The position numbers and the translations under genes were made by a program. This document shows positions 29,676 through 34,260 of a stretch of DNA of 64,000 nt, piece by piece. Origin of the DNA: Deltaproteobacteria bacterium (GTDB lineage: Bacteria; Myxococcota; Kuafuiibacteriia; Kuafuiibacteriales; Kuafuiibacteriaceae); NCBI GenBank assembly GCA_040218735.1, contig JAVJQW010000011.1:192001-256000 (forward strand), read 5' to 3'. Every line of letters begins with the position of its first letter. Position 1 is the first letter of the stretch. Below the pieces are notes generated by a model that had not been told where the DNA came from, searched no databases, and was given only the letters and a program-made list of their open reading frames with translations.

Positions 29676-30383
29676 TCAGCGCGCGGATTCGAGGCGCCAA
29701 TCGACCAGCGCCCACTCGACCCACGCGCACGACCCGACGGCGCTCGTCAGGTGGAAGAGCGCGTGAAGTTGGAGCGCCTGCAGCGGGTGGTCACAGGCGA
29801 GCACGAGGTGCTCCGGTACCCAGAGCACCGCGAAGCCCCCGACGTAGGCGAGCACGGCGACGAAGAACCAGCGGCGTCGATCGCCATCGCCGCGCAGCGA
29901 GAGCGCGCCGGTGCGGGCCACGATGTACGCGACGATCAGCGCGTAGCTCACGATGAAGAACTGGAACCACTCCGCGAACGCGACGTACGCCACCGTGAAC
30001 GCGACGCCGTATCCGGCGAGCGCAGACGCGACGCCGCGACGGACGCTCGAACGACGCGCCGCGAGCGCGTAGACGAACGTGAGGCCGGTGTAGATCATCG
30101 GGAGCTCGTCGGCGGCCTGCGAGACCCTCAGCAGCGTTCCGTGGAACAGCGCGGAACCCAGGCCCACCACGGCCACCGCGAAGGCCGCCGCGGCGAAGCG
30201 CGGCTTTGCCTTCCACGGCAGCCGTCGAGCGCGCAGCAACACCACGACGGCGAGTGCGACGATCGCGAAGCTCGACCACGTGTTCCACCACTCCGCGACG
30301 TAGGTGGAGTACACGTAGTTGGGCTCGCACCAGTCGACGTTGGACGGCGCGCCGAACCCATCCCAGTAACCGCGCTCACCCAT
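29676..30383 (-). CDS. alkaline ceramidase (CREST superfamily, ACER/Ypc1-like)
   Basis: GYW...VDWCEPNY...AEWWNTWSS, GLGSALFHGTL, DELPMIY, QLHALFH; 7 TM. Confidence 0.9.
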   Translation of the reverse strand: MGERGYWDGFGAPSNVDWCEPNYVYSTYVAEWWNTWSSFAIVALAVVVLLRARRLPWKAKPRFAAAAFAVAVVGLGSALFHGTLLRVSQAADELPMIYTGLTFVYALAARRSSVRRGVASALAGYGVAFTVAYVAFAEWFQFFIVSYALIVAYIVARTGALSLRGDGDRRRWFFVAVLAYVGGFAVLWVPEHLVLACDHPLQALQLHALFHLTSAVGSCAWVEWALVDWRLESAR

Positions 30384-30466
30384 CGCCGGACACTCTTGAC
30401 ATATTCGGGGGACATCTGGCACGCGCGCGCACGCGTCTTACTTACTCAGTTCGACGCACGTAAGTA

Positions 30467-30491
30467 TCGAGAAAAATTGGATTTTTCTCGA
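30467..30491. promoter_or_regulatory. perfect AT-rich palindrome, candidate operator
   Basis: TCGAGAAAAAT-TGG-ATTTTTCTCGA (11-bp arms) ending 8 nt upstream of a -35 box. Confidence 0.65.
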
Positions 30492-30499
30492 CAACGGGG

Positions 30500-30528
30500 T
30501 TGACGCGACCAGGGCGTATCCGTACGTT
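30500..30528 (+). promoter_or_regulatory. sigma70-type promoter
   Basis: TTGACG-17 nt-TACGTT; a perfect hairpin (CGCGACACGGT-GAA-ACCGTGTCGCG, 30535-30559) begins at the predicted +1. Confidence 0.7.
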
Positions 30529-30595
30529 CGGTCTCGCGACACGGTGAAACCGTGTCGCGCGTCCCCACAACCCTTTTCACCCCGAGAGGAGAGCC

Positions 30596-30721
30596 ATGAG
30601 CCAAGCCAAGTTCATCGTCTGGTCAATGCGCTCCCCTGTGCAGAACGGATTGCACCTCGGGCTGAGCAACGCGGTTGCGTGCCGATACGACGGCACCGCC
30701 GGGACCGACCCCCTGAGCTGA
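30596..30721 (+). CDS. leader peptide, 41 aa (MSQAKFIVWSMRSPVQNGLHLGLSNAVACRYDGTAGTDPLS)
   Basis: GAGAGGAG RBS before ATG; stop 28 nt before a terminator; last codons complementary to the terminator 5' arm. Confidence 0.7.
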   Translation: MSQAKFIVWSMRSPVQNGLHLGLSNAVACRYDGTAGTDPLS

Positions 30722-30749
30722 CGGTCTACAACGACGTCGGCGCGCCAGG

Positions 30750-30786
30750 AGGCCGGGTCCCCACTTCGGGTACCCGGCCTTTTTTC
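30750..30786 (+). terminator. Rho-independent terminator/attenuator
   Basis: AGGCCGGGT-CCC-CACTTC-GGG-T-ACCCGGCCT followed by TTTTT. Confidence 0.85.
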
Positions 30787-30861
30787 GTTTCTCCCAAGAC
30801 CCGCGGGTCGCCGACGCTCTCCACGCCCGGCCTCCCGCTTCAACGAAGAAGGAGGTGCGCC

Positions 30862-31098
30862 GTGGCGCACGAGACCGACCGCAACCGCGAACGCCTCGAC
30901 GCCGAATACGAGCGTCTGCGTCGCTACTCCGACTACCGCGAGTTCGTTCGCGGCAAGCGTGACGGACGCCTCGGCTACCCGATCGCGGGGATCTCGGAGA
31001 TCTACATCGAGGGGTACATCCTCGGCCGCATGGTGGCGGAGCGCGCCCGACGCGACACCCCGCGGTTCACGATCAGCCCGGCCCGCCGGATGAGCTGA
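30862..31098 (+). CDS. 78-aa small protein, possible Rmf/CrpP-like fold
   Basis: AAGGAGGT RBS before GTG; FVRGKRDGRLG...YIEGYILG two-helix pattern. Confidence 0.7.
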   Translation: MAHETDRNRERLDAEYERLRRYSDYREFVRGKRDGRLGYPIAGISEIYIEGYILGRMVAERARRDTPRFTISPARRMS

Positions 31099-31116
31099 TC
31101 GAAGAGAAGTCGCGGC

Positions 31117-31189
31117 GCGAAGGACGATGGCACGCAGCGAGTCTTCCCGGACTCCACGCCCGCCGGTGCAACGCCGGCCCTTCGCGCCG
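31117..31189 (+). ncRNA. tRNA-like element 1 (degenerate)
   Basis: 7-bp acceptor GCGAAGG/CCTTCGC (extendable to 12 bp), stem GAGTC-TTCCCG-GACTC, T-arm GCCGG-TGCAACG-CCGGC; no D stem; ends GCCG. Confidence 0.6.
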
Positions 31190-31207
31190 CTCGAAACAAG
31201 AAGCTCT

Positions 31208-31272
31208 CGAGGTCATGGCCACGCGTGTAGGCGCGTCGTCTTTCTGGGTGCGAAACGCACCCAGAGGCCTCG
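31208..31272 (+). ncRNA. tRNA-like/three-way-junction element 2
   Basis: 7-bp closing stem CGAGGTC/GGCCTCG, hairpin ACGCGT-GTAG-GCGCGT, stacked hairpin TCTGGGTGCG-AAA-CGCACCCAGA. Confidence 0.45.
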
Positions 31273-31311
31273 CACCGTACGAAGGAAGACAGATTCAGGG
31301 AGGTGACACCG

Positions 31312-31857
31312 ATGGAGACGCTCGTGCTCTCACACACGTATCAGCCACTGGACCGCATCGGGTGGCAGCGCGCCATCACGCTGTGGGTCCTCGACAAGGT
31401 CGAGATCCTCGAGTCGTACGACGACAAGACGATCCGCTCCGTGTCCATGGCCATCGAGATGCCCGCGGTCGTGCGCTTCGTGCACGCGGTCCGCATCCGC
31501 ATCGGCCACCCGCGCTTCTCCCGCGAGAACGTCTTCGCCCGTGACCACGGGCGCTGCCAGTACTGCGGCAAGAAGCTGACCCGTCAGACCTCGACGTACG
31601 ACCACGTCGTGCCGCGTCGCCTCGGCGGCCTCACGCGGTGGGACAACATCGTCATCGCGTGTCTGACCTGCAACCAGCGTAAGGGTGGTCGCACGCCCTT
31701 GCAGGCCGGAATGAAGCTGCGCTCGCAGCCCGTCCGACCCAAGTCGCTGCCGTCGACGTTGCGCTTCACACTTCCGGCGCCTGACAAGGTTCCGGTCCCG
31801 TGGCGCCAGTACTTCTACGACCTGACGTACTGGCATGGCGCGCTCGACGAGTCGTGA
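31312..31857 (+). CDS. HNH endonuclease (McrA-like)
   Basis: GGGAGGTG RBS; LVL..TYQPL, FSRENVFARD..RCQYCG, TYDHVVP, WDNIVIACLTCNQRKG. Confidence 0.95.
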   Translation: METLVLSHTYQPLDRIGWQRAITLWVLDKVEILESYDDKTIRSVSMAIEMPAVVRFVHAVRIRIGHPRFSRENVFARDHGRCQYCGKKLTRQTSTYDHVVPRRLGGLTRWDNIVIACLTCNQRKGGRTPLQAGMKLRSQPVRPKSLPSTLRFTLPAPDKVPVPWRQYFYDLTYWHGALDES

Positions 31858-31874
31858 CGTCGTGCGACGAATCT

Positions 31875-31910
31875 GCCGCGGCGCTCCTCGCTCACGGGGG
31901 GCGCCGCGGC
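31875..31910 (+). other. 16-bp GC hairpin without U tract (processing/stability element)
   Basis: GCCGCGGCGCTCCTCG-CTCA-CGGGGGGCGCCGCGGC. Confidence 0.6.
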
Positions 31911-31915
31911 CCTGC

Positions 31916-31992
31916 TACCGCGAGACATCCGGGGATCGGCGCGTTCACTGCCACGTGACCGCGCGAGGCGGGTTCGACTCCCGCCGCGGGGT
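31916..31992 (+). ncRNA. tRNA-like element 3 (pseudo-tRNA, Gly GCC-like loop)
   Basis: Canonical T-arm GCGGG-TTCGACT-CCCGC; acceptor CCGCG/CGCGG; stem GCGCG-T-TCAC-TGCCAC-GTGA-C-CGCGC; weak D arm, no CCA. Confidence 0.6.
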
Positions 31993-32073
31993 TCGTGTTC
32001 TTGATCTGGTACACCCACCTGCTGGGAAACTGGTTCACCGAGGTTCAGTTCGCTCGGATCCGTCCGATATGAC

Positions 32074-33237
32074 GTGACGGTGTCGAGCGAGCTGATCCTG
32101 GGTATCGACTTCGGTACGTCGTTTTCGTCCGTGGCCGTGTGGCTGGACGGGAAGATGTACGTCGTTTCTGACCAACGCGGCGAGCCCTGCGTCCCGAGCA
32201 TCGTCAACTACCCCCGACGCGGCGAACCGCTCGTCGGCGCCCGCGCCGAGCAGGTCCGCGCCAAGGACCCGACCAACACCATCTGCAGCGTCAAACGCAT
32301 CCTCGGGCGCGCCTACGACAGCCCCGAGCTCCGGATCTTCGATGCGAACAACGCCGTCCGCACCAAGAAGGCCCCCCGCGGCGGTATCCAGCTCATCACC
32401 GACGCAGGCCCCGTCTCGCCGGAGCAGGTCGCCGCCGACATCTTCCGCCACCTGAAGGCCCTCGCCGAGCGCCGCTTCGGCCGCTCCGCGAGCAAGGCCG
32501 TCATCACCGTCCCCGCGTCCGCCACCCGCGCCGTCGAGGACGCCACACAACACGCCGCGAAGTGCGCCGGCCTCGACGTCGTGCGTGTGCTGAGCGAGCC
32601 GTCCGCGGGCGCCATCGCAAACCAGCTCGATCGCTTCGAAGGCGAGCGCCGCATCCTCGTGTACGACTTTGGCGGCGGCACCTTCGACGTCACGATCCTC
32701 GAGCAGCGCAACCAGGAGCTCTTCACCCGCGCCATCGCCGGCGACGCCTGCCTCGGCGGCGACGACCTCGACCACGAGCTCGCTTCGATCGTCTCCGGCC
32801 ACATCTGGAAGAAGTCGCGCACCGACGTCACGAAGGACGCCGTCCGCTGGGAGCGCATCATCCGCACCGCGGAGACCGCCAAGCGCGGCCTGTCCGCACG
32901 CGACGAGGTCCCGTTCCGCGTCGACGACGCCTACGCCTCACGCGGTCGCCCGACCCGGCTCGAGCTCAACCTCACCCGCAACGACGTGGAGCCGCGGTGG
33001 AAGCCGCTCGTCGATCGCGCGAACCGCCTCGCCGCGAAGACCATCATCCACGCGAACCTCCACCCCTCCGACCTCGACGTCATCCTCCTCGTCGGCGGCA
33101 CGACCTACGTCCCGCTCGTACGCCGAACCGTGCACTCCGTGCTCAAACGCCCCGGAATGCACGAAGGTGATCCGCTCACCGCCGTCGCACGCGGCGCCGC
33201 CCTCGTCGCCGCCCGCGCCCTGGACCTCGCCGCCTGA
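32074..33237 (+). CDS. Hsp70-family protein, nucleotide-binding domain only
   Basis: GIDFGTS, AVITVPA, SEPSA, VYDFGGGTFD, LVGGTT, AVARGAA then stop; 387 aa. Confidence 0.9.
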   Translation: MTVSSELILGIDFGTSFSSVAVWLDGKMYVVSDQRGEPCVPSIVNYPRRGEPLVGARAEQVRAKDPTNTICSVKRILGRAYDSPELRIFDANNAVRTKKAPRGGIQLITDAGPVSPEQVAADIFRHLKALAERRFGRSASKAVITVPASATRAVEDATQHAAKCAGLDVVRVLSEPSAGAIANQLDRFEGERRILVYDFGGGTFDVTILEQRNQELFTRAIAGDACLGGDDLDHELASIVSGHIWKKSRTDVTKDAVRWERIIRTAETAKRGLSARDEVPFRVDDAYASRGRPTRLELNLTRNDVEPRWKPLVDRANRLAAKTIIHANLHPSDLDVILLVGGTTYVPLVRRTVHSVLKRPGMHEGDPLTAVARGAALVAARALDLAA

Positions 33238-33246
33238 GCACCGCGG

Positions 33247-34260
33247 CTAACGCAACCGTGTGGGGACCGGGACGGCGCGCCGGCGGCTCATCGCTTCGTG
33301 CGCCGCGTGCGCGAGGACCAGCGCCTGACGACCATCCTCGGGGCCCGTGAGGAGCGGGAAGCCGTCGGTGCGAACCGCGAAGAGGAAGTGCTCCAGCTCG
33401 GCGCGGTAGGCCTCGGCGTAGCGTTCGACGAAGAACCGCGGCGCGGGGTCGCGCTGCTGGCCGGCCTCGGTGAAGCGAAGGACGGTGTTCGTCGCGGCGT
33501 TCTCCGCGATCAACATCCCGGCCGCGCCGTGGGCCTCGACACGTTGGTCGTAGCCGTACGCGGCACGTCGACTGTTGGAGATCTGGCACAGCGCGCCGCT
33601 GTCCGTGCGGAGCGTGACCAGCGCCGTGTCGACGTCGCCGAGCTCCGCGATCGCCGGGTCCACCAGCGTGCTCGCGGTAGCGAAGATCTCGACCGGCTCC
33701 TCGCCGAGGAGCCACCGCGCCATGTCGAAGTCGTGGATCATCATGTCCGCGAACAGCCCGCCGGAGCGCGCGAGATAGTCCATCGTCGGCGGCGACGGGT
33801 CGCGGCTCGTGATCGTGAGGACCTCGAGGCGACCGATGCGTCCCGTCGCGAGCTGCGCCTTGAGACGCGAGAAGCTCGGGTCGAAGCGCCGGTTGAAGCC
33901 GACGAAGAACGGGACCTGCTGACGCTCGACGACCTCGAGCGCGTCGTCGACGCGATCGAGATCCAGGTCGATCGGCTTCTCGCAGAAGATGGCCTTGTTC
34001 GCCGCGGCGGCCTTCCCGATCAGCTCGACGTGGGTGGGGGTCGGCGACGCGATGATGACCGCGTCGACCGCGTCGTCATCGAAGACGCGCTGCGCCTCGG
34101 TCGTCGCCTGCGCCCCGTAGCGCTCCGCGACGGCCTGCGCGGCCTCCCGGTCGACGTCGACCACCCAGGCCAGGTGGGCAGCCTCCGACGCAGCGACGTT
34201 CTTCGCGTGGACCTGTCCGATGCGACCGGCGCCGAACAGCGCGATCCGTAGGCTGGCCAT
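33247..34260 (-). CDS. iolG: myo-inositol 2-dehydrogenase (Gfo/Idh/MocA)
   Basis: GAGRIG, CEKP, GFNRRFDP, ITSRDP, DMMIHDFD, YGYDQRVE. Confidence 0.92.
   Translation of the reverse strand: MASLRIALFGAGRIGQVHAKNVAASEAAHLAWVVDVDREAAQAVAERYGAQATTEAQRVFDDDAVDAVIIASPTPTHVELIGKAAAANKAIFCEKPIDLDLDRVDDALEVVERQQVPFFVGFNRRFDPSFSRLKAQLATGRIGRLEVLTITSRDPSPPTMDYLARSGGLFADMMIHDFDMARWLLGEEPVEIFATASTLVDPAIAELGDVDTALVTLRTDSGALCQISNSRRAAYGYDQRVEAHGAAGMLIAENAATNTVLRFTEAGQQRDPAPRFFVERYAEAYRAELEHFLFAVRTDGFPLLTGPEDGRQALVLAHAAHEAMSRRRAVPVPTRLR

Follow-up and report, generated by a model that had tools for sequence, protein, structure and literature searches.

What is left of an operon of transfer RNA (tRNA) genes once the tRNA genes themselves are gone, and why would the remainder be kept? 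These questions are raised by a 64-kb stretch of high-GC DNA (64,000 nucleotides of contig JAVJQW010000011.1 from a Deltaproteobacteria bacterium; the whole stretch is called the window below). A unit on its plus strand is flanked by a divergent ceramidase gene on one side and by a convergent gene, at 33247, on the other; its genes encode a 78-residue protein (orf78), an HNH endonuclease and an Hsp70-like protein. The genes follow a head composed of a putative promoter, a leader open reading frame (ORF) and a terminator, and are accompanied by three structured RNA elements (E1, E2 and E3) and a long hairpin. Comparison with relatives shows that this locus represents an L-array operon reduced to its non-tRNA skeleton (L-array operons, a known kind, combine a long tandem run of tRNA genes with an HNH gene), and that its head and structured RNAs are under selection. 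The complete reading that we favor, and consider probable though by no means assured, is that the unit is a tRNA-depleted descendant of such an operon, with a probable ribosome-dependent attenuator at its head and with E1 to E3 likely serving as processing or stability signals. A preliminary description of the same DNA, made from its letters alone, had proposed an independent minimal module for translation stress; what the comparisons reveal instead is a tRNA-depleted derivative of a known operon kind.

In what follows, G000 is the window's own genome (11.6 Mb, 96.5% complete), G001 is its sister species, and all other G-numbers denote relatives, which are few and mutually related, a caveat that applies to each comparison. 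The HNH gene, which had been recognized in the preliminary description, provides the link to tRNA arrays. Its protein matches the PF14279 and PF01844 profiles with 54.2 and 48.4 bits, respectively, both above the cut-offs, and residues C82, C85, C117, C120, D97, H98, N112 and N121 are invariant in 13 orthologues. Because these invariant positions include those that we take to be the catalytic and zinc-binding residues, the enzyme is probably active. Strong purifying selection is evident from an identity of 93-95% at codon positions 1 and 2 versus 69% at position 3, and, among 41 related genomes, 31 have a match to the gene, as do 17 of the 19 genomes from the host family.

The surroundings of these orthologues are filled with tRNA genes. 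ARAGORN was applied to the 17 best HNH loci including the window's own, each taken as the gene with 1.5 kb on either side. tRNA genes lie near the HNH gene in nine of the 16 foreign loci (1, 5, 2, 3, 12, 1, 6, 12 and 12 genes), and the loci that have none are the window's own, those of G001, G004 and G011, and four distant ones. When longer stretches are considered, G010 has 31 tRNA genes upstream of HNH, and 15 and 12 surround the gene in G003 and G029, respectively. With isotypes taken from the anticodon alone, the genes most often run Leu-Leu-Leu, HNH, Ser-Ser. Homologues are also carried by plasmids, where a tblastn search yields 70 records, including 11 from Nostoc, 4 from Mycobacterium and 4 from Mycolicibacterium. 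Three plasmid homologues were examined. Those from Mycobacterium and Nostoc are 37-40% identical to the window's protein; the homologue from M. intracellulare (40% identity) resides among 28 tRNA genes and that from Nostoc just before 23 tRNA genes, and the homologue on Acaryochloris pREB6 has no tRNA gene within 5 kb and is adjacent to a methionyl-tRNA synthetase gene. The association between HNH genes and tRNA arrays to which the preliminary description had appealed is thus borne out at this very gene. Given that its orthologues and plasmid homologues occur in arrays, what the window contains is an L-array's HNH cassette from which the array itself is missing. Moreover, the orf78, HNH and Hsp70-like genes, together with the promoter and leader head, are the conserved non-tRNA parts of the arrays, and in relatives they are interspersed with tRNA genes.

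Two further observations concern the HNH protein. PADLOC yields only generic HNH-domain matches (PtuB and similar). A paralogue is encoded elsewhere in the same genome (G000 contig C52, 200951-201388) in a 672-aa open frame; it is 42% identical over residues 34-180, and similar paralogues are present in many relatives.

No tRNA gene is present in the 64-kb window (ARAGORN, 0 found), and a search of Rfam reveals nothing near any gathering score at the locus. The features of the unit, and of the gene that precedes it, are as follows.

29676-30422, minus strand: ceramidase gene (PF05875), divergent from the unit.
30418-30436, plus strand: GC-rich palindromic motif at the operon head, candidate operator; recurs in six genomes.
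30467-30491, plus strand: A/T-rich inverted repeat with perfect 11-base-pair (bp) arms, UP-element-like or operator.
30500-30528, plus strand: putative sigma-70-like promoter, TTGACG-N17-TACGTT, conserved in position.
30535-30559, plus strand: 5′ terminal hairpin of the transcript; 24 of 25 bases identical to the sister species.
30584-30593, plus strand: Shine-Dalgarno (SD) site of the leader ORF, from the sequence.
30596-30721, plus strand: leader ORF, 41 aa; SD and ORF at the matching position in eight loci.
30717-30741, plus strand: small predicted hairpin, 5′ arm over the leader stop codon.
30747-30789 (approximately), plus strand: intrinsic terminator with a 12-bp GC stem and T6 (-27 kcal/mol), candidate attenuator.
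30862-31098, plus strand: orf78, 78 aa, GTG start, new helical-hairpin family; supported by orthologues and codon pattern.
31112-31190, plus strand: E1, Y-shaped RNA with a 12-bp closing stem, an inner hairpin and a T-arm-like hairpin; supported by fold and conservation.
31208-31272, plus strand: E2, three-way-junction RNA with a 7-bp stem and two hairpins, before the HNH gene; supported by fold and covariation.
31312-31857, plus strand: HNH endonuclease gene of the tRNA-array-associated type (PF14279, E 1.4e-14; PF01844, E 1.1e-12).
31875-31910, plus strand: 16-bp hairpin directly after the HNH stop codon (z-score -4.9).
About 31914-31993, plus strand: E3, putative tRNA-like relic with an acceptor-like stem (31916-31922/31985-31991), a central hairpin and a canonical T-arm (31968-31984).
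32074-33237, plus strand: Hsp70 nucleotide-binding-domain-like gene, 387 aa, last of the unit (PF00012, E 8e-81).

If the tRNA genes are gone, then what are the three RNA elements? Their folds measure 65-81 nucleotides (nt), and the preliminary description had taken them for tRNA mimics. They are indeed conserved structured RNAs with compensatory changes, but none scores as a tRNA with ARAGORN or Rfam, and a canonical T-arm is formed by E3 only. As a neutral yardstick we used the third codon positions of three real genes, which are 66.6% identical between G000 and G001. Conservation against the sister species exceeds this level for E1, E2 and the top half of E3 (P = 9e-4, 6e-3 and 2e-4, respectively), and conservation falls to 43-57% in the spacers that follow the terminator or separate the elements. 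The stems of all three elements therefore appear to be under purifying selection. A second time scale is provided by strain X10, which is diverged by about 2.4% and covers the whole stretch; 36 of its 40 contig differences are listed, such that counts drawn from it are at least the values given.

E1 adopts an identical minimum free energy (MFE) architecture in G000 and G001 (82.7% identity; z-score -2.9), and its inner hairpin bears a both-sides change between the two species. In G004 the place of E1, right after orf78, is occupied by a perfect 11-bp acceptor-plus-T-arm minihelix with a T-loop (L007, 1383-1411). Separately, the sister species carries between E1 and E2 a 55-nt truncated tRNA that is absent from G000 (L002, 2143-2197, minus strand), with a 7-bp acceptor stem, a short hairpin and a canonical T-arm.

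The preliminary description had named covariation of the folds across homologous HNH loci as a check, and for E2 such covariation is found. A single MFE architecture is shared by G000, G001, G004, G006 and G011 (z-scores -3.1 to -4.75), which represent four genera, at a mean column identity of 73%. In the alignment of these five sequences, 88.6% of the cells are paired, versus 35-48% when the partners are slid; both sides have changed in 8 of the 25 pairs, and the observed covariation score is reached by 0 of 500 shuffles. In strain X10, a wobble pair at 31213 becomes a C-G pair, and a 1-nt deletion at 31253 falls in a loop. E2 is present as a single copy upstream of the HNH gene in each of the five genomes from which its covariance model was built, where matches are expected by construction, and the model finds no further copies in 20 genomes of the family. 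In G006, a tRNA-Leu gene stands between E2 and the HNH gene. Rfam returns no tRNA match to the region of E1 and E2 (31095-31315) at E values up to 10. A derivation of E2 from a decayed tRNA-Pro is no more than a guess: one tRNA-Pro of the G010 array shares its acceptor sequence, but no tRNA model matches E2.

Only E3 bears a T-arm with a GGTTCGANTCC loop on an acceptor stem; the corresponding loop of E1 is a variant, and E2 has none. This T-loop motif is located at 31971-31981 and occurs once in the window, where 0.35 occurrences are expected by chance. The acceptor-like stem, composed of five Watson-Crick pairs and one wobble pair, is conserved in G001. Indeed, 31 of the 33 bases in the top half of E3 are identical between the two species, with one both-sides change of G-C to A-T in the T-stem, and the identity of the center is 45%. 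The central loop measures 6 nt in G000 and 4 nt in G001, compared with 7 nt for a tRNA anticodon loop. The five differences listed for X10 comprise one compensatory pair (31945 T>C with 31958 A>G) and three unpaired sites. As a whole, E3 is thermodynamically ordinary (z-score -0.19). The only tRNA match that Rfam provides for 31909-31992 is to tRNA-Sec (14.2 bits versus a cut-off of 47), and a match to YrlA (13.4 bits versus 69) involves the T-arm only. In G015, G003, G029 and G038, the position of E3 is filled by tRNA-Ser genes, and its homology to the array tRNA-Ser genes is confined to the T-arm. E3 thus has the appearance of a degenerate tRNA that would have kept only its acceptor and T-arm half.

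The long hairpin after the HNH gene was correctly described beforehand. Hairpins of unlike sequence follow the stop codon in most orthologous loci, as judged by reading, and the single difference listed for X10 (31892) lies in the loop. Together, the X10 changes listed for E2, this hairpin and E3 all fall in loops, convert a wobble to a Watson-Crick pair, or are compensatory. The idea that the elements are tRNA decoys or guides finds no support; E1 to E3 look like diverged descendants of array tRNAs or of array spacers. Most likely they descend from array tRNAs and have been kept as processing or stability signals.

The second part of the argument concerns the head of the unit. In G000, G001, G004, G006, G007 and G011, a GC-rich palindrome (0-1 mismatches) precedes the -35 box by 81-85 nt. 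In all six, an A-run/T-run repeat separates the palindrome from the -35 box, and a TTGAC box occurs at an equal offset. The core of the A-run/T-run repeat is also found just upstream of the -35 box in G010. The operator-like palindrome of the preliminary description is therefore well founded, and is in fact represented by two elements, the perfect A/T repeat and the GC-rich palindrome, at a fixed distance from the -35 box. Even when 6 mismatches per 30 nt are allowed, the GC-rich palindrome is unique in the 11.6-Mb genome; likewise, no convincing further copy of the operator, hairpin or A/T-repeat motif turns up there, and none occurs near its two rtcB genes. As for the sigma70 promoter, its position is conserved in six genomes, but TTGACG-N17-TACGTT fails a strict consensus scan, which finds 0 promoters and also missed the long-stem terminator; we therefore regard the promoter as predicted from sequence. 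The 5′ hairpin, another feature described previously, is conserved above the level of third codon positions between G000 and G001 (P = 5e-4), and hairpins of unlike sequence occupy its position in G004, G006, G007 and G011.

The leader ORF begins 151-179 nt past the palindrome motif in the six genomes, and an SD with an ORF of 25-68 aa is found at the matching position in eight loci. In the six aligned genomes the ORFs are 41, 38, 45, 25, 68 and 41 aa in length and unrelated in sequence. Even between G000 and G001 the DNA identity is 46.8% (46, 39 and 51% at codon positions 1, 2 and 3), which is below the 66.6% yardstick, and 3 of the 5 differences listed for X10 fall at first or second codon positions. 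A strong terminator follows the leader in G000, G001, G006 and G011 and also in the 31-tRNA array of G010, whose head matches that of the window and includes a 67-aa ORF. The terminator type of the window is present in exactly 2 copies in the 11.6-Mb genome, and the other copy, preceded by a 37-aa ORF, heads a cluster of eight tRNA genes on contig C64. The head precedes real tRNA genes in G006 and G007 as well, and its architecture is found in seven genomes, with real arrays behind it in three loci. In all six terminator-bearing loci, which have ORFs of 25-67 aa, the leader stop codon is located 23-34 nt before the terminator; for G006, the computed distance of 23 nt extends to a small helix, and the terminator stem itself begins at 34 nt by reading. 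A small hairpin between the stop codon and the terminator is also seen in G001, C64, G010 and G011 when their sequences are read by eye. The leader ORF and strong intrinsic terminator proposed earlier are thus real features of a conserved architecture. An ORF that has a constant position, a strong initiation site and an unconstrained sequence, and whose stop codon is held at a fixed spacing from a terminator, resembles a regulatory leader. With this stop codon located 23-34 nt before a strong terminator, the progress of ribosomes on the leader probably sets the extent of read-through.

Several candidate features of this region were discarded. An apparent rule of one Trp and one Cys codon per leader did not hold up: neither residue is encoded in the C64 leader, and Cys occurs twice in that of G010. 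A match to Pxr small RNA (RF01812) at 30685-30790 reaches 21.9 bits versus a cut-off of 80 (E 0.84) and consists mostly of the terminator hairpin, and the matches to Rothia-sucC and other Rfam families are far under their gathering scores. The hairpin that was thought to sequester the SD of orf78 (30855-30870) encloses the start codon instead of the SD, and the sister species lacks it.

Certain characteristics of the related tRNA genes were observed along the way. The cluster on contig C64 (29835-31600) comprises tRNA genes for Tyr, His, Phe, Arg, Leu, Leu, Leu and Ser. Repeat units of about 50 nt, which end in duplicated tRNA 3′ ends, follow its Leu and Ser genes. The array tRNA-Leu genes (L009, L011, L012, L013 and C64) are 74-79 nt long and lack a long variable arm, and the stand-alone tRNA-Leu genes on the window's contig are 83-84 nt long.

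The 78-aa ORF is a real gene with its start at 30862, and it defines a rare new family of helical-hairpin proteins. G001, G004 and G011 each have a full-length orthologue immediately before the HNH gene, with 25 residues invariant among the four sequences, and weaker relatives reside inside the tRNA arrays of G007 and G015. The identity to G001 of 82, 91 and 69% at codon positions 1, 2 and 3 is a coding pattern, and both differences listed for X10 are at third positions. The family is found in 7 of 20 genomes of the host family, with no match outside that family among 401 sampled genomes of the phylum. It is represented by 11 clusters among 5.8 billion proteins and by 21 representatives among 1.84 billion; a profile scan of metagenomes matched 240 pattern stretches, none of which was confirmed. 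The protein belongs to no Pfam, NCBIfam or PADLOC family. An AlphaFold2 model (predicted local distance difference test score 87) is a hairpin of two long helices with no significant structural neighbor (best Foldseek E 1.4).

The preliminary description had likened this protein to RMF (ribosome modulation factor). The two proteins have in common a small size, a basic character, a pair of helices and an R-G-x-x-x-G-x-x-G stretch, but only 13 columns align and orf78 lacks a profile match. Specifically, the Pfam RMF profile (PF04957) does not match orf78 at E values up to 1, and a scan of the whole genome for RMF at E values up to 10 yields 6 weak matches, none at orf78. The hhalign probability is 0.9%, a profile search of the PDB returns no RMF, and Foldseek places an RMF chain (9iot_y) at rank 11 with an E value of 7.2. 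As far as sequence methods reach, orf78 is not RMF.

The last gene of the unit, apparently, encodes the Hsp70-like protein. Its match to PF00012 extends over profile positions 1-373 of 599, which corresponds to the nucleotide-binding domain only, and PADLOC has no match to it. The gene follows the HNH gene in G000, G001, G007, G011 and G015 (the window and loci L031, L032, L036 and L043). As stated previously, no rtcB or Ro60 gene is present in the window; RtcB is encoded on other contigs, by two rtcB genes, and the TROVE domain of Ro60 has no match in the 96.5%-complete genome. DNA nearly identical to window positions 30400-32100 is represented in sponge, biofloc, aquaculture and biofilm metagenome runs from several studies (42-92% of sampled words), and strain X10 comes from one of these runs.

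How might these parts work together? We propose that one conserved promoter drives the whole unit and that the short leader ORF is translated. The progress of ribosomes on this leader would then probably determine read-through into orf78, HNH and hsp70, such that expression would report impaired translation. The chances that the leader and terminator form a true ribosome-dependent attenuator seem to us evenly balanced. E1, E2, E3 and the hairpin after the HNH gene would act at the level of RNA, cutting and protecting the polycistronic transcript much as the tRNAs on either side do where an array is intact, rather than by decoding or as decoys. Intact arrays are cut at every tRNA by tRNA-processing enzymes, and the part of a tRNA that these enzymes recognize is the acceptor and T-arm half. 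Both E3 and the minihelix of G004 keep precisely this half, and for this reason a role as cleavage signals is favored.

A number of points weigh against this reading. The role of the four elements in cleavage and end protection is the likeliest one that we can name, but it is one that we infer purely by reasoning, and we hold it only tentatively, with the balance tipped toward doubt. E2, for its part, lacks a T-loop, and we can only suppose that it derives from a tRNA. When transcripts are folded after being cut short ahead of the terminator's 3′ half, the last part of the ORF pairs with the 5′ half of the terminator at each of the four loci analyzed, as an antiterminator would, but in three of the four the duplex is no better than chance: comparison with dinucleotide shuffles gives P = 0.78, 0.25, 0.01 (G006) and 0.49, with a Fisher combined value of 0.08. 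The antiterminator that had been proposed is a recurrent fold whose energy surpasses the shuffles in G006 only. The leaders share no conserved stalling motif and no codon bias, and in G004 and G007 the terminator position is occupied by hairpins that lack a clear T-tract. The tree of HNH proteins is poorly resolved, and the tRNA-less loci represent two changes on the best tree, or possibly one. In addition, the limits of the conserved blocks (5′ hairpin, E1, E2 and the top half of E3) were chosen after inspection of the alignment, the evidence for E1 and E3 comes from two species and one strain, and the X10 counts are minimum values, with 4 to 6 differences of the strain left off the list. Finally, RNA library X20 includes two short contigs over the HNH coding region (31348-31586), but with 4-11 differences they derive from a non-identical organism and are not evidence for transcription here.

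Could the folds simply be neutral relics or palindromes in decaying DNA, with the 41-aa ORF a separate small gene or small RNA, and with orf78, HNH and hsp70 each expressed from its own promoter? The lack of any detectable tRNA, the ordinary folding energy of E3 as a whole, the poorly conserved spacers (43-57%) and the non-significant antiterminator test would all be natural on this account, and GC-rich genomes form hairpins readily. Yet the stems are well above third-position identity whereas the loops and centers are below it, and compensatory changes are seen at two time scales, between species and between strains. Neutral decay also would not be expected to preserve the architecture of E2 in 5 genomes of 4 genera at 73% mean column identity, or the distance from stop codon to terminator in 6 loci with unrelated ORFs, and the strict scan reveals no promoter-like site between the terminator and orf78. 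We therefore judge this explanation to be unlikely. The compensatory substitutions also speak against the notion that the HNH protein is a selfish homing or rearrangement nuclease, whose scars or targets (the hairpins and tRNA fragments) would explain array shuffling and tRNA loss without being functional RNAs, because scars would not give rise to such changes. This notion draws on the discussion of PMC5966550, where the array HNH is called a homing endonuclease and is implicated in the diversity of the tRNA repertoire, and on the presence of truncated tRNA minihelices beside the gene in G001 and G004 and of duplicated tRNA 3′ ends in the C64 cluster. However, the gene is single-copy, syntenic, under strong purifying selection and present in 17 of 19 family genomes, and we consider a selfish origin of the pattern to be highly improbable.

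There remains the self-contained module of the preliminary description, in which stalled ribosomes would induce tRNA decoys or guides, a cooperating nuclease and a ribosome-binding, RMF-like protein. Its appeal derives from the conserved leader and terminator architecture, from the selection on E1 to E3 even though they are not tRNAs (E3 with its acceptor stem and T-arm in particular), and from the response of Anabaena L-arrays to translation inhibitors, as reported in sections of PMC8421152. The HNH protein also resembles the domains of the RNA-guided nucleases IscB and Cas9d, albeit at 41.8 and 50.5 bits versus cut-offs of 175 and 375. On the other hand, orf78 has no RMF match, and nothing ties the HNH protein to E1 to E3. 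The absence of a second copy of E2, or of any match beyond its five source genomes, indicates that there is no variable repertoire of guides, and the freely drifting center of E3 (45% identity) is unlike a decoy of a particular anticodon loop. Such a module is thus quite unlikely, and a little more so than decay. Less remote, though still something that we doubt, is that the L-array operon of this myxobacterial family is induced directly by ribosome stalling through the attenuator, unlike arrays governed by cyanobacterial promoter repeats, and that E1 to E3, derived from tRNAs or specific to the array, were retained as functional non-decoding RNAs once the decoding tRNAs had gone, either as processing signals or as partners or decoys that act with HNH and orf78.

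The tRNA-depleted L-array operon that we prefer belongs to a kind of system that is already known, namely the L-array that includes an HNH gene and is responsive to stress on translation. Sections of PMC8421152 describe L-arrays comprising as many as 43 tRNA genes from several phyla, including all then-defined classes of Proteobacteria, and the published arrays carry a conserved HNH gene that is co-induced with the array by chloramphenicol. The window resembles these arrays in that homologues of its HNH gene are next to or inside arrays in relatives and on plasmids, with neighbors related to RNA or translation. It differs in that the long tandem run of tRNA genes is absent, whereas 12-31 tRNA genes occupy the orthologous place in relatives. 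The head also differs, with a leader ORF and terminator in place of the 9-nt direct repeats over the -10 box and start site that characterize Anabaena promoters (PMC8421152). Furthermore, orf78, E2 and the Hsp70-like gene are not among the array neighbors named in the main-text sections of PMC8421152 on arrays. In the literature that we searched there is no account of L-arrays in this myxobacterial family, though the supplementary lists of PMC8421152 may include the phylum, and no description of a tRNA-less derivative of an L-array operon, of a head with a leader and terminator, of the E2 motif or of the orf78 family.

Mycobacterium array units, which are carried by plasmids, phages and chromosomes, are similar in that the HNH gene is common among them, being the most widespread coding sequence of the arrays according to sections of PMC5966550 (see also PMC12803027), and in that the M. 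intracellulare homologue is 40% identical. The locus in the window is distinguished from these units by its chromosomal, syntenic and apparently vertical maintenance, by the loss of its tRNAs, and by its other accessory genes. Its head shares with ribosome-mediated attenuators, such as those of the trp type and the bmrCD and mef/mel leaders described in parts of PMC4191407 and PMC4335068, a short leader ORF with a strong SD, a terminator that follows, and a variable peptide. In contrast to those examples, no significant antiterminator, regulatory codons or known stalling motif were found in it; a small hairpin fits into the 23-34 nt that separate its stop codon from the terminator, and its function as an attenuator is predicted. 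Y RNAs of the YrlA type that associate with Ro60 are a more distant comparison, given a YrlA score of 13.4 bits versus 69 and the lack of a TROVE gene.

tRNA-like processing signals are familiar from the punctuation of mitochondrial transcripts by tRNAs and from the 3′ ends of the mascRNA type. Like these, the locus has an acceptor and T-arm module between coding regions, at places where its relatives have tRNAs, but E1 and E2 lack a canonical T-loop, and cleavage is here only proposed. The locus offers a clear example of tRNA genes decaying into selected acceptor and T-arm modules, and it defines both a new covarying RNA motif, E2, and a new family of small proteins. In known L-arrays, the role of the HNH protein and the manner in which the arrays sense translational stress are not yet understood. 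The window and its relatives constitute a natural dissection of such operons in which the non-tRNA parts outlast the tRNAs. Because these parts survive without the tRNAs, the HNH protein, the new small protein and the Hsp70-like ATPase can be argued to have a function of their own. In this regard, the conserved leader ORF and terminator supply a concrete hypothesis for how stalled ribosomes could induce an L-array operon.

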